DNA from: Bdellovibrionota bacterium
Lineage (GTDB): Bacteria; Bdellovibrionota_C; UBA2361; CALJRW01
Length of the DNA stretch: 64,000 nucleotides
NCBI GenBank assembly: GCA_041740355.1
Contig: JBGSMD010000009.1
Span: 89,060 to 153,059, forward strand
Direction of reading: 5' to 3'
Under the pieces are notes generated by a model that made no database searches, had not been told where the DNA came from, and saw only the letters and a program-made list of their open reading frames with translations. The position numbers were made by a program, and so were the translations under genes. Below, piece after piece: positions 1-37,426 of this stretch. The number at the start of each line of letters is the position of its first letter. Position 1 is the stretch's first letter.

Positions 1-393
1 GGGAAAATTAGCTCCAACCTTACTAGCACAAGAATTTTTACCGTCCGAATCTGAGCAAATAAACAAGGCAACAGGACCTTTCGGTAAGCTAGCTAAATCA
101 AAATCGAAGATTGAACTACTGCTTTTGGGATCAGCAGAATCTAGTAAAGTTTTAGTTATAACCTTATTTTCATTTAAAGCTTCTAAAGTTACAATCACTT
201 TAGCAAGCTGACCCTTGGAGACGCGCTCTTCAGACTCATACTTAATGGCATCAAGGTCGCCAAATACACAGCGTTCTTCACGATCAATCTTAATAGTGAG
301 TTGGCTATCTTTAATATCTAAGGACTTAGCTTCTGCCAATAATTCAGGTCCAATAATTAAGAGGAAAGCTAATAAACTAATAATAAATTTCAT
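1..393 (-). CDS. Secreted hypothetical protein, truncated at the window edge (not in the ORF track)
   Basis: ATG at 393 with an open frame to position 1: MKFIISLLAFLLIIGPELLAEAKSLDIKDSQ...LFICSDSDGKNSCASK; signal-peptide-like N-terminus. Confidence 0.8.
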   Translation of the reverse strand, partial: MKFIISLLAFLLIIGPELLAEAKSLDIKDSQLTIKIDREERCVFGDLDAIKYESEERVSKGQLAKVIVTLEALNENKVITKTLLDSADPKSSSSIFDFDLASLPKGPVALFICSDSDGKNSCASKVGANFP

Positions 394-520
394 GATGATT
401 GCTCCACGCTGAATTGGTAAATGTCACTAAAAAGTAATTTGTAAATTACAAATTTTGATTAACTAATTATCTGTGAATTAATAAAAAACTGGACTGCGTC
501 CATACTACTGATGTTGTGGA

Positions 521-548
521 TGCCTCAAAGGTTTTACCCCTTGAGGCA
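521..548 (-). terminator. Stem-loop immediately after the stop of the Cys-rich Hint gene (no U-tract; may be an mRNA stabiliser)
   Basis: TGCCTCAA(A)GG...CCTTGAGGCA inverted repeat. Confidence 0.5.
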
Positions 549-549
549 C

Positions 550-3500
550 TTAATCACTTTTGATTTGATCAAATTCTGTTTGAAGAACTAAATCACCAGT
601 ATAAATACCTTCGGAAACTAACAAATGATTATCCACCTCTGAAACTGAAATCTCAGATAGGGTAAAGTTAATCACATTTTGACCTACAACAACAGGTAAT
701 AATTCCTGTGAACTAACAGCAATCCAAGTTCCATCAGCTTTTTTAACTTCATCGCCTGGCTTAACTTCGATCGCACGTTTTAAGCCTGCTTTAGTTAAGA
801 CAACGTGTTTCTGACTGATCTTAATTTTTTCCACACCATAAGTTAACTGAACCAAGGCTTCTGTTTCAGGTCCTTCTACTACTTTTAATACCTCTAATTT
901 TTGACCTGGGGCTCCAAGTAAATAATCACCAACTTTAACATTTTCAACAAGTACTTCTTGATTGTTAGCTAAAGTTACTTTTGTCCCTGGAGGGAAACAT
1001 CCATCAGATCCCCGATTACAAGCACATGTCCAGCAGGCATTCGGATCGGCTGACAGTTTAGTACCTGTGTAATCAGTCTGACCACCATTAGCATCAGTTA
1101 CAATAACATTACCATTAACGTCGACTCGGGTTACCCCTTGGTTAAGATTTGTATTGTTATAGAACAGATCAGCAATACCCTTATAGTTAGTAAAGTTAAA
1201 TGCTGAATCAACCCCGTCACCCTTCACACAAACTATTTTTTTAGGATCACAATAATCATTATAACGATATCGACCTCGATCTACTTGAGTAGGAACAGGA
1301 ACATTATCACAAACGTTAACAACATCACATGTAGAAGAACATCCTGAGCCAGCTACACCATTATTAACTCCAAGGTCACATTTCTCTCCAAGTTCAGAAC
1401 TTACAATACCATCTCCACAATATTTCGTGATCTCACATTCTGTATTACAAATTTGCTTCGTTGGACTTGCTTGAGATCCAGGAATTAAATCAAAATCAGT
1501 TCCATCGCAAAGTTCATTCTCATCCCTTATTCCATCACCACAATAAGGTACCTCTTCACATGTTACTGAACATCGAGAATTTGGTGTGCCATTACTTGCA
1601 CCAAGATCACATTTTTCCCCTAGTTCCGGACTCAAGATACCATCTCCACAATATGGATTAATGGTACATTCATTATTACAAACTTGATTTGTCAGACTTA
1701 TCTGTACTCCTTGATCTAAATAAAAGTCATCTCCATCACAAAGCTCACCTTCGTTACGAAATCCATCTCCACAGTATGGAGGAAATTCAACTCGGCAAAA
1801 TTCATTACAGGTTACCTTAGTAGGATCTACATTTAATGGGAAGTTAAGATCATCAGCGAAATCGCTGCCATCACATTCCTCATAAACTGGACAGCCAATA
1901 GCCTGACATGTTGGTTGATCTTTAGGTATGCCATTTACAATTCCATCTCCGCAGTATGGAGTCATTTCACAGTTCAGTGAACATCTAGAACCTAGTGTCC
2001 CATTTTTTACACCAAGGTCACATAGTTCTCCAAGTTCTGGACTGAAAATTCCGTCTCCACAATATAAGTTTACTTCACAAATGGAATTACATAATTGATC
2101 GGTAGTACTAACTTGAAGACCTTCAGCTAAATCAAAGTCATCACCATCACAAAGCTCGCCTTCACTCCGAATACCATCTCCACAATATGGCTCATCTTCA
2201 CAGGTTAAGGAACATCTAGAACCAGGAGCACCGTTATTTTCTCCAAGATCACATTTTTCCCCTAATTCAAGATTTAGAATACCATCGCCACAATATGGAT
2301 TAATCCTACATTCTTCATTACAGACTTGATTGGCCAGACTGCTTTGAACTCCCGGATCTAAATTAAAGTCATCTCCATCACAAAGTTCCCCTTCATTTCG
2401 AATATCATCACCACAATATGGTGGAAATTCTACTCGACAATAATCATTACAAGTTACTTTAGTGCGGTCAACATTTAATGGGTAATTAATATCATCCGAA
2501 AAATCATTGCCATCACATTCTTCATAAACTGGACACCCAATTGCCTGGCAGGTCAGATCATCTTTAGAAACTCCATTAACAATTCCATCACCACAATACG
2601 GCTTAACTGTTACTTCACAGCTAGCGGAACAGGTTAGATTATTAAGCGGAATGTTATTAGGATTAGCATAGCCACTGAAATCATTTCCATCACAAATTTC
2701 ACCAGCAGTTACGACTCCATCACCACAATAATCCTCTACAATGACAGTACAATCATCCCTACATGTTAAGGCATCCTGAGGGATATCCGCTTTATCAGGA
2801 TTAAGTTCAAAGTAAACTGAAAAATCTTCACCATCGCATTCTTCGGTATCTGTGCAATAGCCCCAATCTTCTTCGAAGTTATCAACACAAAATGCTCGCT
2901 TCGCTTCTCCATCCCCACAATAAGGTCGGACATGAACATTACAACTTCCTGTACAAATTAAATTTGCTAGGGGAATATTATTTGGATTGGCATAATTACC
3001 AAAATTTGTACCTTCGCAGATTTCATTGTCTGCTAATTGTCCATCTCCACAATATGGATCAATCTGACATTCGTTGGAACATTTTGCATTAGGATGAGTT
3101 ACTCCACCAAGATCTGTTAAATCACATTCTTCAACTCCTGCCTGAATTTCACCATCACCACAATAGGTACATTTAAATCCATTTGCTCGGCAGTTTGGAA
3201 CATAACTTGCTTGACCAACTTTAATTCCATAATCACAATTCTCATTGTTAGTTTCATCTAAAAATCCATCGCCACAAACAACTACTTTGCAATTGTTGCG
3301 ACATGTCTTGCCAGCTGGAGTGTCAGTTCCATCACATTCTTCTAAGGGATTATTAACATCGTTATCTCCGCACTTAGTGCAATCCTCTCGACATCCAGTT
3401 TTAGTTTGAGGATCATTATAATCACAAGTTTCGCCTTTTGGTAAATCTATTTCTTGTGTCCAAACTCCATCACCGCAATAAGGAAGTCGGCAATCGGCAC

Positions 3501-3777
3501 GGCAATTATCCGTTAAGATCTTATTGCCATCATCACATTCTTCATCAAGTAAAATTAATCCATCACCGCAATATGAACAGGTCAGACATTCACAGTTTTT
3601 ACAGCCACAAACATTAGGATCAGAAATGACTGCCGCAACAGAATTTGGATAGGCACTGCAATCTAGGTTTGAGATAACAGAATCTTGTGCGACTGTAAAT
3701 GTTGGAATACTTGCTAGTATGAACAGGCTACAAAGTAACCTCACACAAAGAATAGAGAAAATTTTCGAGTTGGACAT
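550..3777 (-). CDS. Secreted myxococcal-type Cys-rich repeat (DUF4215-like) protein with C-terminal Hint domain
   Basis: Signal peptide; many YCGDG...ExCD repeats; Hint begins at G|CFPPGTKV (Cys927, nt 999), with SQKH block B and ...NHLLVSEGIYTGD end. Confidence 0.88.
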   Translation of the reverse strand: MSNSKIFSILCVRLLCSLFILASIPTFTVAQDSVISNLDCSAYPNSVAAVISDPNVCGCKNCECLTCSYCGDGLILLDEECDDGNKILTDNCRADCRLPYCGDGVWTQEIDLPKGETCDYNDPQTKTGCREDCTKCGDNDVNNPLEECDGTDTPAGKTCRNNCKVVVCGDGFLDETNNENCDYGIKVGQASYVPNCRANGFKCTYCGDGEIQAGVEECDLTDLGGVTHPNAKCSNECQIDPYCGDGQLADNEICEGTNFGNYANPNNIPLANLICTGSCNVHVRPYCGDGEAKRAFCVDNFEEDWGYCTDTEECDGEDFSVYFELNPDKADIPQDALTCRDDCTVIVEDYCGDGVVTAGEICDGNDFSGYANPNNIPLNNLTCSASCEVTVKPYCGDGIVNGVSKDDLTCQAIGCPVYEECDGNDFSDDINYPLNVDRTKVTCNDYCRVEFPPYCGDDIRNEGELCDGDDFNLDPGVQSSLANQVCNEECRINPYCGDGILNLELGEKCDLGENNGAPGSRCSLTCEDEPYCGDGIRSEGELCDGDDFDLAEGLQVSTTDQLCNSICEVNLYCGDGIFSPELGELCDLGVKNGTLGSRCSLNCEMTPYCGDGIVNGIPKDQPTCQAIGCPVYEECDGSDFADDLNFPLNVDPTKVTCNEFCRVEFPPYCGDGFRNEGELCDGDDFYLDQGVQISLTNQVCNNECTINPYCGDGILSPELGEKCDLGASNGTPNSRCSVTCEEVPYCGDGIRDENELCDGTDFDLIPGSQASPTKQICNTECEITKYCGDGIVSSELGEKCDLGVNNGVAGSGCSSTCDVVNVCDNVPVPTQVDRGRYRYNDYCDPKKIVCVKGDGVDSAFNFTNYKGIADLFYNNTNLNQGVTRVDVNGNVIVTDANGGQTDYTGTKLSADPNACWTCACNRGSDGCFPPGTKVTLANNQEVLVENVKVGDYLLGAPGQKLEVLKVVEGPETEALVQLTYGVEKIKISQKHVVLTKAGLKRAIEVKPGDEVKKADGTWIAVSSQELLPVVVGQNVINFTLSEISVSEVDNHLLVSEGIYTGDLVLQTEFDQIKSD
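1318..2601 (-). repeat. Intragenic tandem super-repeat, 2 x 642 nt (214 aa)
   Basis: TCQAIGCPVYEECDG blocks recur 642 nt apart (tcataaactggaca at 1880 and 2522); units 1960-2601 and 1318-1959. Confidence 0.9.
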
Positions 3778-3831
3778 GAATTGAACCTTAATATCTATGA
3801 AACCTATGAGTTAAGATTCAGATCCAGACAA

Positions 3832-3851
3832 ATTCGATTCTTGCTTCTAAA
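3832..3851 (-). promoter_or_regulatory. Conserved upstream motif of Hint gene 1
   Basis: ATTCGATTCTTGCTTCTAAA, 19/20 identical to 4816-4835, both starting 55 nt from the start codon. Confidence 0.65.
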
Positions 3852-4071
3852 TTGATTAAAGGAATTATTTTAAGTTATCATCATTCTAGAAACAAATAGT
3901 AATTTCAAGTAGTTACATTTAGAATAAAAGCTCTTAGCTTTAAGCAGGCTTCTTAAAACATGTAACCAACTCACTGCGCAGAACATTTATCTATAAGTTC
4001 ATATTGCAATGATAATAGATGGTTACTGAAATTCTCTGGAAACAAATTCCGTTTAGTTTTCTTAGCTTTAT

Positions 4072-4761
4072 TTACTCCGTCGCTATTTCTTCTTCTATTA
4101 CTTCTGGATCCAGCGTAATAACAGGTTCAACTTGAACAGCTACTGGCTGATTAATAATTTCCATTGCAGTTAAATCGCCAGTGACAATCCCATTTGATAA
4201 CAACATGTGATTTTCAAGCTGGTCATCCCCTTCTAGCCTAATATTAAAAACTTTCTGCTTAGCTTTCACTGGTAAATACTGTACTTTTGATACTTCAGCT
4301 TTCGTTCCATTAAGATTAGCCAAGTGACCTCGTTTAACATCTCTAGCAGGAATAGTTCCTTCGTCAGTTTTAACTGGATGGGTCTCCGTAACTTTGACTG
4401 TTTTATTACCAACAGTAATTACAACAATCGGTTCAGATTCAAAAGACTCCAGAACATTAACTACTTTAGCTATTTTTCCACTGACAGGATTTATCACTTG
4501 ATCTCCAACTTGGATATCTTTAATTGCTTTCTCCAGTCCATCTCCCATCAGGATTTTGGTATCTGGCACAAAACAACTTGGCAATGCTTGTGGTGAGCCT
4601 TGTTGCGAGCTTGCCGAACCCTGTGGTGAGCCCTGTGGTGAGCTTGTCGAACCCACTGTCGAACCACCACTGCCTTCCGCAACCAACAAAATTGGAATAC
4701 TAATTAATAACAAAGTATAAATTAGGCTTTTAGATAAATTGGCAATTTGAGATAGAAACAT
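4072..4761 (-). CDS. Secreted short S/G/Q-rich peptide fused to a Hint domain
   Basis: Signal peptide, SPQG repeats, then S|CFVPDTKILM (Cys63), TETH block B, ENHMLLSNGIVTGD end, acidic tail. Confidence 0.88.
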   Translation of the reverse strand: MFLSQIANLSKSLIYTLLLISIPILLVAEGSGGSTVGSTSSPQGSPQGSASSQQGSPQALPSCFVPDTKILMGDGLEKAIKDIQVGDQVINPVSGKIAKVVNVLESFESEPIVVITVGNKTVKVTETHPVKTDEGTIPARDVKRGHLANLNGTKAEVSKVQYLPVKAKQKVFNIRLEGDDQLENHMLLSNGIVTGDLTAMEIINQPVAVQVEPVITLDPEVIEEEIATE

Positions 4762-4815
4762 GAATTAAACCTTTAGGGCATAGATAAAAAAGTTATTAGA
4801 ATTCAATCAGAACGT

Positions 4816-4835
4816 ATTCGATTCTTGCTCCTAAA
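4816..4835 (-). promoter_or_regulatory. Conserved upstream motif of Hint gene 2
   Basis: ATTCGATTCTTGCTCCTAAA; matches 3832-3851. Confidence 0.65.
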
Positions 4836-4874
4836 AACAAGAAATTTAGTAACTTGATTATCATGCTAGCGAAT

Positions 4875-4910
4875 GTCAGCTTAATTACCAATAGTAAAAT
4901 TTAAGCTGAC
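4875..4910. other. Intergenic inverted repeat (terminator or operator)
   Basis: GTCAGCTTAA...TTAAGCTGAC perfect 10-bp stem. Confidence 0.45.
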
Positions 4911-5006
4911 TGAACGAGAACTGCTTATAACCTATTCTTTTAATCCGAAGCATAAAAAAAGTCAGAGGTTCTAAGCATCTCCGATAACTAGAAATTGTAG
5001 GTACAA

Positions 5007-5435
5007 TTAAAACAATTTACCTATTAAATCCTTTGCTTTACCAAGAAAACTGCCCTCTCCCTTAAAGATATTTAAAATCGAGCTAAGCTTACCGCCAAAA
5101 AGTCCACTTACAAAATCTATTCCGTAATCTAGAAAACTAGGTTTTTCCACTACACTCTGATTATTTCCACCTAAAGAGTTACCATTATTAGCAGCAAGCG
5201 AATTAGTGTTGTTAACGCCACCAAAACCAATTTGTTGAAAAATATTATTGACTGTCTGCAAGATAATATTAGTTAGTCCATTTAGTAAATTATCAATAAA
5301 TGGATGCTGACACTGCGTTGAAGCAGTGGAATTTAAACTGGTACTATAATTAGTCTGTAATGGTGCTTGATTAATCATAGAAGTTTCCAATTGATAAGGA
5401 ATGGCGGAGGTATTAATTGGTTTAATATCTAACAT
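5007..5435 (-). CDS. Hypothetical Asn/Gly-rich protein with C-terminal amphipathic helices
   Basis: 142-aa ORF with AAGGGA RBS; no recognised family. Confidence 0.7.
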   Translation of the reverse strand: MLDIKPINTSAIPYQLETSMINQAPLQTNYSTSLNSTASTQCQHPFIDNLLNGLTNIILQTVNNIFQQIGFGGVNNTNSLAANNGNSLGGNNQSVVEKPSFLDYGIDFVSGLFGGKLSSILNIFKGEGSFLGKAKDLIGKLF

Positions 5436-5753
5436 TTGGTGTCCCTTTTTAAAAAATTAAAGTCACCTATACCAAAAACAAACTTCAAAAAGTAAATTTT
5501 TCCGGGATTTCTGGATGATACATATTGAATTACTTCAACATATCAATAATTTTTTTTACATTGGAAAGGATTTACCCGTATCGAAGTAAAGAAATCTGGC
5601 AAGGATCCATTTGGTGTATTAATAACTTTTGGTTACTAACTACACCGGAATAAATCCTTATCGAAATTTTGATTAAGATGTTGCTTAATAAAACTCTGGA
5701 TATAATTTCTTTTAAGAATTTGAAAAAGCTTTGATTGTCAGGTGACTTCTAGA

Positions 5754-6794
5754 TTAGATTAACATTTCTCTTTCTGCAGCATTTTTACGATATTCCTGAT
5801 AATGCTGAGAATTTTGAAGGAATAATCCCGCGCCAGCTACGACAGCAGAAATTGGATCAGGAGCTCGATGGACCTTAATTCCCAGCTCTTCAGATAAACG
5901 TTTCTCAAGTCCACGAAGTAGACTTCCTCCGCCGGAAAGATTTAATCCAGTGGAGATAATATCCCCAGCAAGTTCTGGCGGGGTTATTTCTAAGGTTTGG
6001 CGAATTGCTGAGATAATACTGGAAACAACTTCTGACATAGACTCTCGCATTTCCTTGCTAGTCACTGTGATACAGTGTGGCGCACCACTTGTTAAACTGC
6101 GCCCTTTAACTTTCATCTCTAAAGTATCGAAGTCAGAATGTGCCGAGCCAATAGTTAGTTTAATCTTCTCCGCTGTTAATTCGCCAATCAAAAGATGACG
6201 AACTCGCCGCAGATAGTTAATTATTGCTTCATCAATGGTATCTCCCCCTTGGCGAACAGAAAGGGCTTGCACAACATCACCTAAACTAATAACTGCGATA
6301 TCCGTAGTTCCACCTCCGATATCTACAATCATATTAGCTGTGGCTTCGTCGACTGGTAAGTTTGAACCGATTGCTGCGGCCATCGCTTCGTCAACTAATT
6401 GAACTTCTCTGGTTTTGTTTTCAATGGAAAGTCGAATCGCTCTTTTTTCTACTTCAGTAATTCCACAAGGAATACCTACAATCACACGAGGTTTAAAGAT
6501 TGTAATATTATTATCGGTAACTTTATCTAAGTAATGAGCTAACATCATACCTGCAACTTCAAAGTCAGCGATAACACCTGTACGAACTGGGCGAACAACA
6601 TCAACTCCTGGAGGTGTTTTTCCTAACATTGCTTTAGCTTCCGCGCCGAAAGCGATAGGTACTTTTTTATTCCCAACTTTCTTAACAGCAACAACACTAG
6701 GCTCATTTAAGATAATTCCCGCGTCTTTGGCATAGATTAAAGTGTTAGCAGTACCTAAATCAATGGCTAAATCTCTAGCAACAAAACTGAACAT
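5754..6794 (-). CDS. mreB: Actin-like rod shape-determining protein (MreB family)
   Basis: DLGTANT, EPSVVA, VDIGGGTTD, LSGGGSLL motifs. Confidence 0.93.
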   Translation of the reverse strand: MFSFVARDLAIDLGTANTLIYAKDAGIILNEPSVVAVKKVGNKKVPIAFGAEAKAMLGKTPPGVDVVRPVRTGVIADFEVAGMMLAHYLDKVTDNNITIFKPRVIVGIPCGITEVEKRAIRLSIENKTREVQLVDEAMAAAIGSNLPVDEATANMIVDIGGGTTDIAVISLGDVVQALSVRQGGDTIDEAIINYLRRVRHLLIGELTAEKIKLTIGSAHSDFDTLEMKVKGRSLTSGAPHCITVTSKEMRESMSEVVSSIISAIRQTLEITPPELAGDIISTGLNLSGGGSLLRGLEKRLSEELGIKVHRAPDPISAVVAGAGLFLQNSQHYQEYRKNAAEREMLI

Positions 6795-6830
6795 GAAATA
6801 ATCTATTTTAAAAAATGGAAAAATACAGGA

Positions 6831-7030
6831 TACTTAAACTCTCTGCTCGTCTTTTTAGAAAAAATGTCGAGTAAGGAGGGTGAGCAAAGTAATGGCTAAG
6901 CAATTTTTTGCCGCAGAAAACAAATACTCAAAACCAAAAAGTGAAAAATGCAATTCTTACCCGCCGATGCTTTTGCAAAGGAGGACGCATTTTACCACCA
7001 CGTTTCACCAAAACATAATAGGTTTGAGTA
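6831..7030. repeat. Composite palindromic intergenic element
   Basis: 6851-6935 resembles 16415-16498 (TAAGG.G.GTGAGCAAA...TTTTGCCG.AGAAAA); TACTCAAAACC...GGTTTGAGTA arms enclose a REP-like hairpin at 6960-6986. Confidence 0.6.
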
Positions 7031-8435: not shown

Positions 8436-9722
8436 CTAAGATAATTCTAATATCTTTCTTAACAGCTCACTATTGTGCGAATGCCCAGTCATGTTAGCTG
8501 TAATCTTACCCACGATAGGTCGACCAAGAAGATAAATATCTCCGATCATATCTAGAATTTTATGTCGCACGGGCTCATCAGGGAAACGAAGCTCCGAGTT
8601 GATCACGCCATCTTCGCCAATCAACACAAAATTATTAAATCTTCCACCCTGCGCTAACCCTTGTTTCTGAAGATAATCAATATCTTTAACAAAGCCAAAA
8701 GTTCGACAGCTAGCAATTTCCCTTTGATAACTTTCAAAGTTATCCATTTTAAAAATATAATGTTGCTCCCCAATTGGTTGTTGATAATTGAGCGTGTAGT
8801 CAATAATTAATTCTTCTGCTGGCTCTAATCGTATAAAAGCGTCCCCTTTTCGCACTTCTATAGTTTGAGTGACCATTAATTCGGCAATACTTGCTGACTG
8901 TTCTTTAATGCCTACTTCTTGAAACATTTTACAGAATTCAATTGCGGAGCCATCCATAACTGGAACTTCCTCATTACACTTAATTAATAAGTTAGTAATT
9001 CCGGCTGCGTGGAGTGCCGACATTAAATGCTCAATAGTTGACACTTGAGAGTCGGCATTTTTAATTGTCGTAGCGTATCCAGTAGTGCTGACATAGTTAA
9101 CGTGCGCCGGAACAGCCTGCTTACTCCCAGGTCCAGCAAAGTGAATGCCTGAATTTTCTGGTAGTGGTTCCAAAATTAAACCTGATTTGCGACCACTGTG
9201 AACTCCCACTCCATAAAGAATGCTACTGCCTGCTAAAGTTTTCTGAACTCTTTCTTTGCCAACAAAAAAATCATTTTTAAAAACATCACTTGTAATTTGG
9301 CAAGTTTGCAAAGATAGGCTTTCAATTTCAGGAAGATGAACTGAAGAATTACTCTTACTTGTCAAAGCTTTATTAACAACTTGTTGAATAACTAGTAAGT
9401 CTAGGGGCTTTTCAATAAAATCAATGGCTCCTAACTGCGTCGCTTTTACTGCTGTGGAAATAGTAGCGTGGCCACTAATCATTACCACTGGCAAAAGACT
9501 ATCAAGGCTACGAATCTTTTCTAAAGTCTCCATTCCATCCATCCCTGGCAACCAAATATCCAAGAATACTAGTGCCGGAGATTTTTCTTTAATAATTTCA
9601 AGCGCCTGATTGCCATTACTGGCATGACAACAAATCATGCCAAGATCTTCTAGGACATGACTTAAAGTCTCACAAATACTTTTCTCGTCATCGACAATTA
9701 AAGCTAAATTATTGTTGTTCAT
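8436..9722 (-). CDS. lpxC: Receiver domain-LpxC fusion (UDP-3-O-acyl-GlcNAc deacetylase)
   Basis: REC: IVDDE, FLDIWLPGMDG, ISGH, FIEKP. LpxC: GVGVHSG, TIEHLMSAL, EVPVMDGSA, RHKILDMIGD, TGH. ATG at 9722 preferred over TTG at 9734. Confidence 0.93.
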   Translation of the reverse strand: MNNNNLALIVDDEKSICETLSHVLEDLGMICCHASNGNQALEIIKEKSPALVFLDIWLPGMDGMETLEKIRSLDSLLPVVMISGHATISTAVKATQLGAIDFIEKPLDLLVIQQVVNKALTSKSNSSVHLPEIESLSLQTCQITSDVFKNDFFVGKERVQKTLAGSSILYGVGVHSGRKSGLILEPLPENSGIHFAGPGSKQAVPAHVNYVSTTGYATTIKNADSQVSTIEHLMSALHAAGITNLLIKCNEEVPVMDGSAIEFCKMFQEVGIKEQSASIAELMVTQTIEVRKGDAFIRLEPAEELIIDYTLNYQQPIGEQHYIFKMDNFESYQREIASCRTFGFVKDIDYLQKQGLAQGGRFNNFVLIGEDGVINSELRFPDEPVRHKILDMIGDIYLLGRPIVGKITANMTGHSHNSELLRKILELS

Positions 9723-9786
9723 AGTAAATTTCAAAAATTACTTTATTAATATAGTAATTTACGGCGAGTGTGAATATTAGAGCCTT

Positions 9787-18828: not shown

Positions 18829-19235
18829 ACACCTCTATAATTCTCTCTTCGTAGTCGACCAAGTTTACACAATAACAAGTTGTAAAAATATTGCAGTTAA
18901 CTTTAGAATCAAAGCACCACAAACCTTGAAGAGGTGAAATATATAACAAATATAGAGAATTAATTCAAATCAAAATCAAATTAAACTAGAGTCTTAATTT
19001 TGAGCTTTAAAACGCTTAACGTAGTTATTTCCCTAGAATATAGTGCAATCCATAATCCTGGGAAGAAAAAGTAGGAATTTTAATACTTTTACCTTTCAAT
19101 GTTAAAGAAAATTTGGTTTAAAAATTACAATTTTATTGAATAAAATTGATTAAGAAATTAGCTAATGATAAGTTGTTAACCTTACAAAGTTCAGATTCTG
19201 TTGACTTTTCCAAATTCCAACTTGAGATTACAAAT

Positions 19236-20444
19236 ATGATTAATCGAATAACCTCCCAAGTACTATTATCTTTACTGATCACAATACTAAGTGTTTTTAG
19301 TTGTTATGCAGACCTTCCAGAAAGTTGCCTCGGCGATTGCCCAGTTGAAAACCTATGTGGCAATCAACAAGTAGACCCAGGGGAAGAATGTGATTCAACC
19401 GAAGGCTGTAATTACAATTGCCAATATGCAGTCTGCGGAAACGGTATCGTGGAAGAAGGTTCTGGTGAGCAATGTGACAATGGAGAAACAGATTTAAATT
19501 GTTTAGATGAAGAATCTAATTGTAACTTTATGCAAAATCTTCGAATTCAAGGTGGTCAAGAGTTAGTCACCATTTGTAACGATAGTTGCTTACTTCAAAC
19601 CTGCGGAAATGAAATCATTGAGGGTGATGAACAATGTGATTTCGGTGATACAGAAGATGGAGATGGTTGTAGCGCCTCTTGTCGCCTTGAGGAATGCGGA
19701 AATGAAATCATTGAGGGTGATGAACAATGTGATTTCGGTGATACGGAAATTGGAGATGGTTGTAGCGCCTCCTGTCGCTTTGAGGAATGTGGCAATAGTA
19801 TCCTTGACCCTGGTGAGCAATGCGATGAGGGTAATCCATCTTCTAATGATGGCTGTAGCAATACCTGTATAATTGAAACTGAATGCGTTGGAAATAATTG
19901 TGGCCCCCAAGCTGAAGTATTTGATTGTCTTGATAAAGAAGGTCAGCTCAATAAGCTTGACCGATGTCAGGTCTGTGGCGGAGATGGTCAAAGTTGTCTA
20001 GCATGCGTGGAAAGCAGTAACGTAGAAGATCAACTAAGAATGGATGGAGCTTCAAAAAGAATGGCTGGACTAATAATTGGTCTAAATAAAAAATTACTAA
20101 AACTTGAGATCTCTAATCAATTAAAAAGAAACCTACTTAATTCTAATAATCAAGTTAAGGAACTTTACTTAACTAGTTGGACATTAGCTTGGTCACTGCC
20201 ACTTGTTACAAAAGCATGCAACACGGTGTTTTGTACAACAGCAGATCTTTCGCCCCTGGTAGTATTATACGCCGAGAAGCTGGCGGAAATAGAAGCTGAA
20301 GCTAGAAAATCGGCTCGAATCCTAAAACGCTTAACAGGCAATAAAAATTCAGCAAAACAATTTTTGGAGAAAATTACAGAACAGTATAATTCTGGAATTG
20401 AGACATCAGGTCTTGTGACTACATCAACAAGCGTTTGCTCATAA
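19236..20444 (+). CDS. Secreted Cys-rich repeat (DUF4215-like) protein with helical C-terminal domain
   Basis: Signal peptide from ATG 19236; CGN...EQCDxG...DGCS..C repeats; DRCQVCGGDGQSC motif. Confidence 0.85.
   Translation: MINRITSQVLLSLLITILSVFSCYADLPESCLGDCPVENLCGNQQVDPGEECDSTEGCNYNCQYAVCGNGIVEEGSGEQCDNGETDLNCLDEESNCNFMQNLRIQGGQELVTICNDSCLLQTCGNEIIEGDEQCDFGDTEDGDGCSASCRLEECGNEIIEGDEQCDFGDTEIGDGCSASCRFEECGNSILDPGEQCDEGNPSSNDGCSNTCIIETECVGNNCGPQAEVFDCLDKEGQLNKLDRCQVCGGDGQSCLACVESSNVEDQLRMDGASKRMAGLIIGLNKKLLKLEISNQLKRNLLNSNNQVKELYLTSWTLAWSLPLVTKACNTVFCTTADLSPLVVLYAEKLAEIEAEARKSARILKRLTGNKNSAKQFLEKITEQYNSGIETSGLVTTSTSVCS
19602..19787 (+). repeat. Near-identical 93-nt tandem duplication
   Basis: tgcggaaatgaaatcattgagggtgatgaacaatgtgatttcggtgatac... 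occurs twice. Confidence 0.9.
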
Positions 20445-33742: not shown

Positions 33743-36700
33743 TTAATAGTTTAAATTGCTTTGCAACCACTTCTCCATTTCCATCAAGGTCTTACCTTTT
33801 CGCTTAGCTAAGTCAGCAACTTGATCCTTGGAGATCTGACCCAGACCAAAATACTTAGCTTGTGGGTTCATAAAATACAATCCCGAAACAGAAGAAGCAG
33901 GCATCATGGCAAAGTGTTCTGTCAAAGCCATGCCAGTATGCTTAGTCGCATTAATCAAGCTAAAGATAGTTTCCTTTTCTGTATGGTCAGGACACGCTGG
34001 ATAACCAGCTGCCGGACGAATCCCGACATACTCTTCTTTAATTAATTGTCTGGTAGTTAACATTTCATCTTCGGCATAGCCCCAATATTCTTTACGAACA
34101 ATTGCATGTAAACATTCAGCAAAAGCTTCAGCTAAACGATCAGCAATTGCTTGCGCCATAATCACGGAGTAATCATCACTCTCCGCTTTAAATTTGGTGA
34201 TTAATAATTCTAAATCAATACCAGTGGTGACAGCAAAAGCTCCGATGTAATTTTTAACTCCAGAATTTTTTGGAGCTATGTAATCGGACAAAGCCAAGTT
34301 CGATTGCCCTTCACCTTTCTTTAACTGTTGGCGAAGCGTGTGCATTACTGCAATCACTTCACTTCTAGTGTCGTCGGCATAGACTTCAATATCATCGTCG
34401 TTTATGGAGTTAGCAGGAAATAATCCAATCACTCCATTTGCTTGTGGAATTCCCGTAGCTTGCATTTGTGCCAACATCGCCTTGGCATCTTTAAAGATCT
34501 CACGAGCTTGTTTGCCATAAGTCGGCGAATTTAGGATTTCAGGATAACGTCCTTTTAATTCCCAAGTACTAAAAAATGGTGACCAGTCGATGAACTCAAT
34601 TAGTTGTTCCAGAGGAAAATTTTTAAAAGTATAAATTCCTAATTTGTTAGGCGTATGCGGTTTGAATTCCGACCAATCAATTTGAAATTTATTCTTACGA
34701 GCTTCTTCTAAGGTAAAATATTGCTTAATGTCATCCCGACCTTCGTAATCCGAACGCAATTTTTGATATTCCTTTTTTGTCTGAGCAACAAATTCATCGC
34801 GATTTTCAGGCATTAGTAAACTACTAAGAACAGGAACCGCTTTGGAAGCATCTTTTACGTGGATACATGGTCCAGAATAATGAGGTTCAATCTTTATTGC
34901 CGTGTGTTTCTTAGAAGTAGTAGCACCTCCAATTAACAGTGGGACTTTATAATCACTGCTCTCTAAGAGCTTGGCAAAGTAAACCATTTCATCTAGTGAT
35001 GGAGTAATTAAACCACTAAGTCCAATCACATCTACTTTTAAATCTTTAGCAGCTTTTAGAATCTTTTCCGGGGGAACCATTACTCCCATGTCATGAATTT
35101 CGTAATTGTTACAAGCAAGCACCACACCAACAATGTTTTTACCAATGTCATGTACGTCCCCTTTAACAGTTGCCATCAGAATTTTACCGTTATTCTTAGC
35201 ATCACCTTCCTGTTTTTCCGCGTCCATAAATGGAATTAAATAGGCCACCGCTTTTTTCATTACGCGCGCACTTTTCACAACTTGAGGAAGAAACATTTTT
35301 CCAGAACCGAACAAGTCTCCCACGACATTCATCCCTTCCATTAAAGGCCCTTCGATTACATCAAGGGGTCGACTAGCAAGCTTCCTAGCTTCTTCCACAT
35401 CCTCGTCAATGTAATCAGCCAAGCCTTTAATTAAAGCATGGGTCAGTCGCGCATTCACATCTAAGTTACGCCAGTCAATATTAGCTTTAACATTAGTAGT
35501 ATCAATCTCTCTAAAACTTTCAGCTAAAGAAATTAGATTTTCAGTAGCATCGGCATGACGATTAAATAATACATCTTCAATCTTAAGCAGTAACTCAGCA
35601 TCAATTTCTTCGTAATTAGGAAGTTGTCCAGCATTTACAATTGCCATATCCAGTCCGGCATTAATTGCGTGGAATAGAAAGATGGAATGCATTGCTTCAC
35701 GTACGTAATTATTTCCACGAAATGAAAAAGAAATATTACTTACCCCACCACTGATTTTTGCTTTTGGCAAATGATCTTTAATCCATTTAATAGTTTCAAT
35801 AAAATCGACAGCATAATTATTATGTTCTTCCATCCCAGTTGCAACGGTTAGGATGTTTGGATCAAAGATAATATCTTCAGCGGGAAACTTAACTTCTTCT
35901 ACTAAGATCTTGTAGGCTCTCTGACAAATAGCAATTTTCTTTTCTAGGCTATCAGCTTGTCCATTCTCATCAAATGCCATGACCACCACAGCAGCACCAT
36001 ATTGCCTAACTTTCTCGGCTTGCTCACGAAACTTTTGCTCGCCTTCTTTCATGCTAATCGAATTGACGATTGCCTTTCCCTGTACGGCTTGAAGCCCAGC
36101 TTCAATGACTGACCAACGAGAAGAGTCAATCATAAATGGTACTCTGGAAATTTCTGGCTCAACAGCTAGTAAATTTAGAAAGTGAACCATCTCCCATTCC
36201 GAATCAAGCAAACCTTCATCGAAGTTGATATCTAGAATCTGAGCACCATTTTCAACTTGCTCCCGTGCAACATCCACAGCAGCTTCATAATCTTTCTTTT
36301 GAATTAATTTTTTAAATTTGGCAGAACCAGTAATATTATTACGTTCACCAATATTTACAAAATTACTTACTGTATTAATTACTAAGGGTTCTAAACCGGA
36401 AAGTTGTAAACCAGGTCTTTTAGTTGGCACAACTCGTGGACTACAGGTTTTAATGCGCTCGGCAATTAAACGAATATGTTCGGCTGTTGTTCCACAACAA
36501 CCACCAACTAAATTGATTAATCCTTTGTCGAAAAACTGTTCAAGTTCCAACATAAATTCCCGAGGAGTTTGATCGTACTCGGCCAGTTCATTTGGAAGTC
36601 CCGCGTTCGGGTGAATGCTAACATGAACTTCTGCCATCCGTGATAGCTCACTTAAGTAAGGCAATAACTGCTCAGCACCTAGAGCACAATTAAGTCCAAT

Positions 36701-37426
36701 GCTTAGTAAATTACGAGCGTGTGATACGGAAATCCAGAACGCTTCCGCAGTTTGACCACTTAATGTTCGTCCGCTTAAGTCAGTAATAGTTCCGGAAATC
36801 ATTAGTGGCAATTCAATCCCAGAAGTCTTACAGAATTCGCTATGTGCATAGATTGCCGCTTTAGCATTTAGTGTATCAAAGATTGTTTCAATCATTAATA
36901 AGTCCACACCGCCTTCGGCTAAGGCTTTGATTGACCAAGTATAATCATCAACTAATTGCTGGAAATTAACATTACGAAATGCCGGATTGTTCACATCAGG
37001 AGAAATAGATGCTGTCCGATTAGTTGGACCTAAGAGTCCATAAACATAACGCGGCTGATCAGGTGTTTTTTCGGAATACTTATCAGCTAAGTCTCTGGCA
37101 ATCTTTGCTCCAGCAATGTTTAGATCATAAACTAAATCTTTTTCAAATTTATAATCACTTTGTGAAATTAAATTGGAATTAAAAGTATTAGTTTGAATAA
37201 AGTCTGCCCCGGCTTCTAAATATTCCCCAAATATTTCGGAAATGACTTGGGGATGGGTAATATTTAAAAGATCATTATTGCCTTTAACCGAACAACAATG
37301 ATTTTTAAATTTACTGCCAGCATATTCCTGTTCATTTAGCTGATATTTTTGGATTGCCGTTCCAGCAGGACCATCCAAGACATAAATTCTCTTGCTAAGT
37401 AGTTTTTGAAATGATTTTAAATTCAA
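33743..37426 (-). CDS. metH: Cobalamin-dependent methionine synthase
   Basis: [26 protein letters not shown]. Confidence 0.98.

Follow-up and report, generated by a model that had tools for sequence, protein, structure and literature searches.

Hint domains begin their chemistry with an N-S acyl shift in which block B assists, as set out in the accounts drawn on here (PMC7664689, PMC4031507, PMC7765530, PMC9163320). The Hedgehog Hint domain is described as using this shift only (PMC7664689), and the Hedgehog cargo is then transferred to cholesterol, which is activated by the general base D46 (PMC9163320). Bacterial intein-like (BIL) domains without a +1 nucleophile are reported to give mainly cleavage products, and type B BIL domains, which have no block G, to cleave and not to splice (PMC7664689, PMC4031507, PMC7765530). 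Here we describe two adjacent genes in a 64,000-nucleotide stretch of contig JBGSMD010000009.1 of a Bdellovibrionota bacterium (assembly GCA_041740355.1; this whole stretch is the window) that encode predicted secreted proteins, one large and one small, each ending in a Hint domain with a Thr-Gly-Asp (TGD) motif near its end. We consider it probable that such domains carry out a Hedgehog-like N-terminal autocleavage, in which a thioester at Cys1, the residue that opens the domain, would release the cargo outside the cell, with water as the default acceptor.

The closest group described earlier is that of Burglin (2008), introduced as 'yet another subgroup' with motifs A and B and the start of a BIL-A-like motif F, and noted also by Dassa and Pietrokovski in 2005; its hosts are given as Myxococcus, Stigmatella, Photorhabdus, Serratia, Yersinia and Reinekea, with MXAN_6253 and plu1731 as examples (PMC2362128). 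Compared by description only, that group resembles the proteins reported here in ending with a Hint-like domain, in carrying signal peptides and in having two Cys residues conserved upstream of the domain; the large protein of the window fits this description, and the small one has no upstream Cys. The part of the account that describes the group mentions neither the partner gene nor the TGD motif found here (PMC2362128), and a literature search by the 2008 locus tags returned nothing on its members.

The TGD Hint domain and its family

Both genes lie on the minus strand, and their features are as follows (a slash within a motif marks a cleavage junction, predicted throughout).

550..3777, minus strand: large precursor gene, 1075 aa (open reading frame call), with signal peptide, DUF4215 and TIGR02232 repeats, linker and C-terminal Hint domain
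3688..3777, minus strand: aa 1-30 of the large protein, probable Sec signal peptide ending TVA/QD (hydrophobic N-terminus by eye and a hydrophobicity heuristic)
1318..3600, minus strand: Cys-rich acidic repeat cargo of the large protein, aa ~60-820 (Pfam and NCBIfam)
1000..1317, minus strand: linker of the large protein, aa 821-926, ending C915-x-x-C918-x-C920-x-R922-x3-G926 (conserved junction motif)
580..999, minus strand: Hint domain of the large protein, C927-Q1066 (seed hidden Markov model, domain E=1.5e-78)
997-999, minus strand: Cys1 codon of the large Hint domain
592-600, minus strand: TGD codons of the large Hint domain (T1060-G1061-D1062), with a 9-aa tail after Q1066
4072..4761, minus strand: small gene, 229 aa (open reading frame call)
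4678-4761, minus strand: probable signal peptide of the small protein, ending LVA/EG (by eye)
4576-4677, minus strand: linker of the small protein, 34 aa (aa 29-62), rich in Ser, Gly, Gln and Pro
4162..4575, minus strand: Hint domain of the small protein, C63-M200
4573-4575, minus strand: Cys1 codon of the small Hint domain
4174-4182, minus strand: TGD codons of the small Hint domain (T194-G195-D196)
4075-4161, minus strand: acidic tail of the small protein, 29 aa

The original prediction for this stretch, made from its letters and open reading frames, was of two co-oriented genes with signal peptides whose products end in homologous Hint domains that keep the catalytic Cys and the block-B His and share a TGD end. 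This much is borne out: the reading frames have exactly the predicted limits, both N-termini are hydrophobic by eye, the C-terminal regions of the two proteins align by BLASTP at E=1e-21 (30% identity over 184 columns), and every motif quoted is present. In the large protein these are G926/C927-FPPGT, the block-B motif SQKH and the C-terminal string NHLLVSEGIYTGDL; in the small one they are S62/C63-FVPDT, TETH and NHMLLSNGIVTGDL. The Asp of TGD is followed by Leu in both, with 13 residues from that Asp to the stop codon in the large protein and 33 in the small one. Upstream of its linker, the large protein matches DUF4215 at 35.7 bits (Pfam cut-off 27) and TIGR02232 at 60.3 bits in 10 stretches (NCBIfam).

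Library profiles recognise solely the N-terminal part of both Hint domains in Pfam and NCBIfam. The small protein scores above the cut-off for Vint (31.8 bits; Pfam cut-off 27), in a match that spans positions 1-68 of the 166 in that profile, and for intein_Nterm (25.9; 24.5), and below it for Hom_end_hint (29.1; 32.1), PT-HINT (24.1; 27.7) and Hint_2 (14.6; 28.4). Hom_end_hint likewise stays under its cut-off in the large protein (28.2 bits; 32.1), and Pfam Hint, PF01079, reaches 12.5 and 20.0 bits in the two window proteins, the latter in the small one, for a cut-off of 29.7. A Pfam scan of the Hint proteins of the window found no VWA region. The fold itself is confidently predicted to be Hint in both. 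An AlphaFold2 model of residues 45-229 of the small protein, built from a 25-row family alignment, has a mean pLDDT of 90.5 and a pTM of 0.79, and is all-beta with a short helix straight after TGD. Foldseek returned 71 matches to it in the PDB at E<=1e-3, and those listed are nearly all inteins, BIL domains, Hedgehog Hint domains or Vint. The best is BIL2 of Tetrahymena BUBL1 (6y75, E=9e-11), with the gp41-1 intein 6qaz (TM 0.89 on the target), the Clostridium thermocellum BIL domain 2lwy and several mini-inteins among the others; the Hedgehog Hint domain is represented by 6tyy (E=3.5e-7) and 1at0 (E=9.3e-7). Comparison of the family profile with PDB sequences also places 2lwy first (E=5e-14). 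Structure prediction had been proposed as a check of the Hint assignment, and its outcome agrees with that assignment.

The domain belongs to a large family. Word-based protein searches for relatives gave 2, 2 and 7 matches; a search with a hidden Markov model (HMM) that retained some non-Hint columns, run against 1.84 billion representatives of 50% identity clusters, gave 10442 proteins at E<=1e-3, of which 1639 reach E<=1e-10 and 212 reach E<=1e-30. An HMM restricted to Hint columns was then used to re-score 152 proteins, namely the matches listed and, from this genome, P0003 and P0004. In 146 of them it finds a single strong Hint domain at the C-terminus (E<1e-30). The remaining six are multi-Hint proteins that match weakly: P0009, P0014, P0058, P0068, P0075 and P0141, of 842-4119 aa, carry at least four tandem, weakly matching Hint domains, an architecture distinct from the single C-terminal one.

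Among the 146 members, several columns are nearly or fully invariant. The junction has Gly at -1 in 132 of 142, Cys1 in 140 of 142 and Phe2 in 139 of 142; an Asn-Pro pair is also kept (Asn in 135 and Pro in 130 members), and a Glu about 45 or 46 residues from Cys1 as well as the His of the block-B motif [TS]-x-x-His-Pro are present in all 146. Block F reads Gln-x-Val-x-Asn (134, 144 and 144 of 146), and the position corresponding to F:13 is His in 97 members and Arg in 38. At the end stand TGD (Thr in 114, Gly in 141 and Asp in 139 of 145) and then Leu-x-Leu-Gln, hereafter LxLQ, with its Gln in 142 of 145. Judged from this alignment, the family signature is G/CF ... [TS]xxHP ... QxVxN ... His or Arg ... 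TGD-LxLQ, and TGD is the mark of the family. The Asp of TGD is naturally replaced by Asn in four and by Glu in two of the 145.

The Hint domain always stands at the extreme C-terminus, with a tail past the Asp of median 13 aa (at most 25 aa in 132 of 141 members). Cys1 is preceded by a Cys-rich junction, typically C-x-x-C-x3-R-x3-G/C; the 22 aa upstream hold at least two Cys in 100 of 138 members and a CxxC in 66 of 138. A signal-peptide-like N-terminus was found, by a crude hydrophobicity rule, in 96 of the 128 members with a Met start and more than 40 residues before Cys1. The cargo regions are diverse and mostly without a Pfam family, DUF4215 occurring in 17 and dockerin in two of the 122 members scanned; Hint_2 matches at E<=1e-3 in 13 of the same 122. 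Two of seven further matches (P0156, P0157) have a TadE-like pseudopilin N-terminus.

For both window Hint domains the ratio of nonsynonymous to synonymous substitution (dN/dS) relative to their orthologues is ~0.12 (0.199/1.63 and 0.152/1.27 by the Nei-Gojobori method, with synonymous sites near saturation). The original prediction had argued that a TGD shared by two diverged proteins reflects selection and not decay; the argument is right, and the conservation of the Gly and Asp columns across the diverged family, together with this ratio, makes it much stronger. Its list of features, correct in its motifs, had omitted the downstream partner gene, LxLQ, the Glu at about 46 and the Cys-rich motif before the cleavage site.

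Mapped onto intein nomenclature, Cys1 is A:1, and [TS]xxH supplies B:7 with its Thr or Ser and B:10 with its His. In the type A BIL domain 2lwy, the Asn of V-Y-N-F is the one to which the QxVxN Asn aligns, and the latter corresponds to block F:4. Alignment of the family profile with the 139-residue Mtu RecA mini-intein chains reaches profile position 185 at residue 137; TGD occupies profile positions 185-187, so that Gly-Asp falls opposite chain residues 138-139, which we take to be the His-Asn of block G. The alignment is compatible with the predicted replacement of the penultimate His and terminal Asn by Gly and Asp (and of the +1 residue by Leu). A profile of the C-terminal half of the family matched only 2lwy in the PDB, over block F, and nothing over block G; the equivalence of Gly-Asp with His-Asn is accordingly plausible but indirect.

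Covariation connects several of these positions. Ser replaces Cys1 only in P0113 and P0116 among the 146 members, and the same two proteins have Ala for Val and Gly for Asn in block F, Glu for Gln after TGD, and have lost the Gly at -1. These coordinated changes tie the Gln of LxLQ and the block-F Asn functionally to the nucleophile. Two genomic members (at loci L033 and L034) also have Ser1 with equal coordinated changes, and the partner gene is still found downstream in this Ser1 sub-lineage.

A conserved partner gene

Adjoining the large gene downstream is a gene for a predicted secreted protein of 238 aa, of which the window holds the 5' part.

1..393, minus strand: 5' part of the partner gene, 131 of 238 codons (full gene L005:10740-11453, minus strand; the remainder lies just outside the window)
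490..548, minus strand: hairpins 3' of the large-gene stop codon (a stem at 502-490 with a T-run scores as terminator-like; a longer inverted repeat at ~548-520 was seen by eye)

Four Cys are invariant in the partner family. Its members also share the motifs RC[MV]FGDLD, C-D-x(n)-C-x-x-K, DKIYFF and, close to the C-terminal end, LP-x-[YF]-D-x-x-KC. The genome has a third paralogue of the Hint genes, of 1148 aa and the same architecture, on another contig (C61/L006), and a partner homologue follows it (E=6e-10), as it does Hint genes in distant relatives. We surveyed 124 species genomes of the phylum, which are related, so that the counts are non-independent, and in which Hint identities go down to ~30%. 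The Hint domain and the partner each occur in 25 of the 124 genomes and co-occur in 22; for 33 of the 43 Hint matches a partner match follows downstream on that strand, no more than 1500 nt away. The ten Hint matches without an adjacent partner comprise the small gene of the window and its orthologue, one whose contig carries no partner match, two weak Hint matches, four in a multi-copy genome and one with the partner 2.9 kb off. Ten metagenome loci were found through a single peptide pattern that samples part of the family; the partner is directly downstream in five of them, upstream within the locus in two (one sequence, from two samples) and absent in two, and one has no downstream sequence. 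In the window the large gene and the partner have a terminator-like hairpin between them; at many other loci they adjoin each other or overlap.

A Pfam scan of 25 partners assigned no family, with one weak match to DUF3114 (E=0.0087), and the Atlas gave no usable match. The AlphaFold model of the partner is confident (pLDDT 86.9, pTM 0.83) and matched no fold in the PDB (best E=0.02, TM at most 0.2). Prediction of a complex between the Hint domain and partner residues 21-238 gave an ipSAE of 0.01 in two runs, a result that weighs neither way. From its conserved position we infer that the partner is functionally coupled to the Hint step or to the released cargo.

Some loci carry other genes at this place. 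Besides family members with a TadE-like N-terminus there are others after which genes with prepilin-type N-terminal methylation motifs take the place of the usual partner (noted for L009:2017-3635, L011:2604-2975, P0156 and P0157), which hints at a link of some family lineages to type IV or Tad pilus-like machinery.

Probable N-terminal autocleavage and the alternatives

Autocleavage at the N-terminal junction is the best supported chemistry because all residues of the first step are present, the junction reads G/CF, and there is nothing to splice to. Both precursors would be exported by the Sec pathway with an autoprocessing Hint domain at their extreme C-terminus. Cys1 (C927 or C63) would attack the carbonyl of the Gly or Ser at -1, assisted by the block-B Thr or Ser and His, and the resulting thioester would be resolved to free the Cys-rich repeat cargo from the Hint domain at G926/C927 (at S62/C63 in the small protein), by default with water as acceptor. 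The Asp of TGD, which would lie beside the active site at the place of the terminal Asn of inteins, and the Gln four residues later would most likely aid resolution of the thioester and not cleavage of the tail; this role is proposed for the Asp because the preceding Gly replaces the His that assists cyclisation, and because a conserved helix follows. The downstream four-Cys secreted protein would be coupled to the resolution step or to the freed cargo. That the natural chemistry would be a Hedgehog-like N-terminal acyl shift was already part of the original prediction, and the retention of Cys1 and of the block-B motif [TS]-x-x-His is in keeping with it. So, too, is its statement that canonical splicing is impossible: neither protein has a C-extein nucleophile, and only the short LxLQ helix and a few residues follow, for which reason splicing is excluded.

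Among described systems, Hedgehog/Hog proteins share with this layout a secreted precursor, cargo on the N-terminal side, a Gly/Cys-Phe junction (GCF being the Hedgehog cleavage site), a C-terminal Hint domain without a C-extein, and the block-B Thr and His. An acidic residue at about 46, here the Glu at 45 or 46 counted from Cys1, may correspond to Hedgehog D46, a comparison made by residue number alone. Unlike Hedgehog, the family has no sterol- or adduct-recognition region (SRR/ARR), only ~13 residues following the Hint domain; PF01079 stays below its cut-off, the host is bacterial, the domain ends in a TGD-LxLQ of the family's own, and a partner gene is dedicated to it. Type B BIL domains are likewise bacterial Hint domains of variable secreted proteins; they keep the N-terminal intein motifs and lack block G, a motif pattern that the family fits. 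The present family is strictly C-terminal and has its own end motif, and Hint_2, which we take to represent type B BIL domains, scores below its cut-off in the small protein. In function the family would be most like Hog and type B BIL domains, and the sequence thresholds of neither are reached.

Other Hint systems are further removed. The type A BIL domain 2lwy is the best profile match and a top fold match and has V-x-N-F in block F, but type A domains end in His-Asn and, as described, can splice or cleave C-terminally (PMC7765530, PMC4031507); here Gly-Asp, the conserved helix and the protein terminus take that place, and type A BIL was rejected as a class for this lack of a C-terminal His-Asn. 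An intein was rejected as well, there being no host protein, no +1 nucleophile (Leu follows the Asp) and Gly-Asp for His-Asn. The BIL domains of Tetrahymena BUBL proteins (6y75, 6tmm) include the best Foldseek match, and in these proteins the Hint thioester conjugates the upstream domain to another protein; they differ in being eukaryotic and cytoplasmic, in flanking ubiquitin-like domains and in ending in Asn (mutated to Ala in the deposited N143A structure, according to the PDB title). The PT-HINT domain of polymorphic toxins, to which the small protein has a weak Pfam match, is also a secreted bacterial Hint domain that releases a neighbouring module, but it precedes a C-terminal toxin, whereas here the released module would be N-terminal and a short tail follows; with no domain after Hint, this class was rejected. 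Vint proteins are described with an N-terminal VWA and a Vwaint region before the Hint domain (PMC2362128), and no VWA accompanies the domain here.

Several observations weigh against autocleavage and temper our preference for it. Block F:4 is described as most commonly Asp in inteins, where it helps to deprotonate Cys1 (PMC4031507), and is Asn in this family. Cys1 would have to stay reduced in an oxidising compartment, and it lies 7-12 residues after conserved Cys residues that could lock it in a disulfide. Pfam covers only the N-terminal half of the Hint domain; what supports the catalytic assignment of the C-terminal half is fold topology, together with an alignment that goes no further than the Thr of TGD. 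The Asn and Glu that naturally replace the Asp of TGD would be no worse a fit to a residue that cyclises than to a general base. The involvement of the partner is deduced from gene order alone. Finally, the small protein is without three features conserved in the family, so its processing may be abnormal.

A further question is whether the thioester, once formed, is resolved by something other than water. The original prediction had raised the prospect of ligation to a lipid, glycan or other protein. The acceptor might be peptidoglycan, the head-group of a lipid in the envelope, the partner or some other protein, and the cargo would thereby be anchored or cross-linked through its C-terminal Gly, as cholesterol anchors Hedgehog. 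The Hedgehog-like layout (secreted cargo, G/CF junction, C-terminal Hint domain) is compatible with such a transfer, as are the dedicated partner gene conserved beside the Hint gene, the invariant Glu, numbered like Hedgehog D46 in a match by residue counting alone, and the strict conservation of TGD-LxLQ, which suggests more than simple hydrolysis. The conjugation carried out by the BIL domains of Tetrahymena BUBL, the top fold match, would be a precedent. We regard the Glu, TGD-LxLQ and the partner gene as suggestive of transfer, not as evidence for it. The short tail leaves no room for a sterol- or adduct-recognition region, and BIL domains in general are reported to yield hydrolytic cleavage products (PMC7664689, PMC4031507); ligation seems to us unlikely. 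A narrower form, a two-component extracellular acyl transfer in which the Hint domain would activate the cargo Gly, TGD-LxLQ and the Glu would replace the Hedgehog base, and the acceptor would be the partner or an envelope molecule that it presents, we hold to be more doubtful again.

The Hint domain might instead be non-catalytic in vivo, a folded and perhaps disulfide-locked module for binding, secretion targeting or recognition of the partner, with the precursor left intact. The conserved Cys directly before Cys1 in an exported protein, the change of the block-F Asp to Asn and the co-occurrence of the partner, which fits a binding role, would be compatible with this. The near-invariance of Cys1 and Phe2 and the invariance of the block-B His speak against this, and the nucleophile covaries with three other sites, a pattern of an active site and not of a scaffold; we think this reading very improbable. 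Least credible of all is that C-terminal cleavage is primary, the Asp of TGD cyclising like an intein's terminal Asn, Asp or Gln so that the LxLQ tail is lost and N-terminal cleavage is optional: although Gly-Asp falls opposite the last two mini-intein residues, inteins ending in Asp, Glu or Gln are described as able to cyclise (PMC4031507) and the natural Asn and Glu substitutes of the Asp could do so, the penultimate His is replaced by Gly in 141 of 145 members, the leaving group holds a near-invariant Gln and a conserved Leu in what is modelled as a packed helix, unlike a disposable C-extein, and loss of ~13 residues would have no obvious use.

Hedgehog-like autocleavage in such proteins is less new than the original prediction implied, since cleavage without splicing is an established activity of BIL domains and a similar secreted bacterial group was described in 2008. 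Literature searches (including DUF4215 with Hint, and Vint, BUBL and N-terminal cleavage) found no functional study of the family, and the searched literature appears to contain neither the pairing with the four-Cys gene nor the covarying TGD-LxLQ signature nor the size that the family reaches. Here a large subfamily ends secreted proteins, keeps every residue that a thioester requires and travels with one gene. The pair of Hint protein and partner thus offers a defined system in which to ask whether bacteria use Hedgehog-style chemistry to cut or also to attach. Transfer, if it occurred, would give bacteria a counterpart to the cholesteroylation of Hedgehog and a new route for anchoring proteins without sortase, and would provide a small ligation module able to work under oxidising conditions; hydrolysis alone would make this an ordinary self-cleaving maturation domain with an unexplained partner.

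The small gene and the genomic setting

A syntenic relative (locus L007) has the same gene order as the window: a 282-aa gene, mreB, a 142-aa gene, P0006 (924 aa), P0005 (890 aa) and a 238-aa gene, and DNA comparison of the two confirms the synteny. P0005 is the orthologue of the large protein (77% identity over the C-terminal region searched, residues 900-1075). P0006, a 924-aa Hint protein, stands at the position of the small gene, and its Hint domain is 72% identical to the small one at the protein level. At the DNA level the small-gene Hint region (window 4577-4147) matches the 3' end of the relative's 924-aa gene, and the signal peptide and linker of the small gene have no DNA match in the relative. 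By these comparisons the small gene is a cargo-deleted, that is N-terminally deleted, paralogue of a cargo-Hint gene. The predicted tandem system of two genes does not survive this result, as only 34 residues precede Cys1 in the small protein where the relative has a 924-aa gene.

The sequencing runs listed for this sequence were three DNA runs of a single study, one of them possibly the source, with no RNA run among them. That the small gene arose by misassembly was rejected, as another run of that study gave short contigs identical to the window over 4384-4613 and 4683-5000, and as the gene has its own leader and signal peptide. A separate question, confined to this gene, is whether a full-length cargo-Hint gene has here decayed to a remnant with no function of its own. 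Beside the full-length gene of the relative, the small protein shows several departures from the family: Met200 replaces the near-invariant Gln, the single case among 145 members; Ser at -1 is shared by 8 of 142; there is no Cys in the 22 aa before Cys1, as in 6 of 138; the protein extends 24 aa beyond the stop of its orthologue; and the gene has no partner of its own. On the other side stand an intact frame, its own signal peptide, the 5' leader motif shared with its paralogue, contigs that exclude an assembly artefact, and a Hint dN/dS equal to that of the large gene. As this ratio indicates, the small Hint domain is still under purifying selection, though deviant at three family-conserved positions, and decay is a possibility that we entertain only tentatively.

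Exchange among these genes may have affected the large one. The 5' 1.1 kb of the large gene (window 2680-3824, minus strand) is closer to L007:3672-4806, the upstream 924-aa gene, than to its positional orthologue, which suggests that the large gene has recombined or undergone gene conversion among repeat-rich paralogues. A motif precedes the start codons of both window genes.

3780..3850, minus strand: 5' leader of the large gene, with the motif AAGAATC.AAT ... GATCTGAATCTTAA ... TTAAGGTT before the ATG
4764..4832, minus strand: 5' leader of the small gene, with the same motif AAGAATC.AAT ... GATCTGAATCTTAA ... TTAAGGTT

It is common to all four tandem Hint genes (the window pair and the pair of the relative), and the leader of the third paralogue (C61/L006) differs; the shared motif may possibly be a common promoter or operator. 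Rfam gave no match at E<=0.1 in window positions 1-7000, and a sigma-70 scan found 12 candidates, below the mean of 19.1 in shuffled sequence. Related contigs are labelled as metagenome-assembled genomes of Oligoflexaceae, Silvanigrellaceae, 'Pseudomonadota bacterium' or 'bacterium'; the Silvanigrellaceae are placed within Bdellovibrionota, class Oligoflexia.

Other Cys-rich or repeat proteins occur in this genome. A second secreted Cys-rich family is represented at window 19146-20444 (plus strand), by a member with DUF4215, and at L004:2468-4201 (minus strand); the two share a ~175-aa C-terminal domain ending SVCS (BLASTP E=2e-17), with no Hint domain and no Pfam family, and the C61 copy lies just downstream of the C61 pair of Hint gene and partner. 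Contig C48 has, at ~35260-36843 (plus strand), a 5320-aa open frame for a giant Cys-rich protein in which DUF4215 is repeated many times and no Hint domain occurs. The gene next to the Hint genes on their upstream side (window 5007-5435, minus strand) encodes a protein of 142 aa, rich in Asn and Gly, that has neither a signal peptide nor a Pfam match; it is conserved in place in the relative (L007:3122-3550).

The flanking genes are housekeeping ones, among them mreB (similarity by eye) and a receiver-LpxC fusion. In the latter (window 8436-9734, minus strand) a single open reading frame joins a response-regulator receiver (aa 12-120, 103 bits) to a full LpxC deacetylase (aa 164-429, 298 bits). 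The fusion is kept in the syntenic relative and suggests phosphorylation-controlled synthesis of lipid A.

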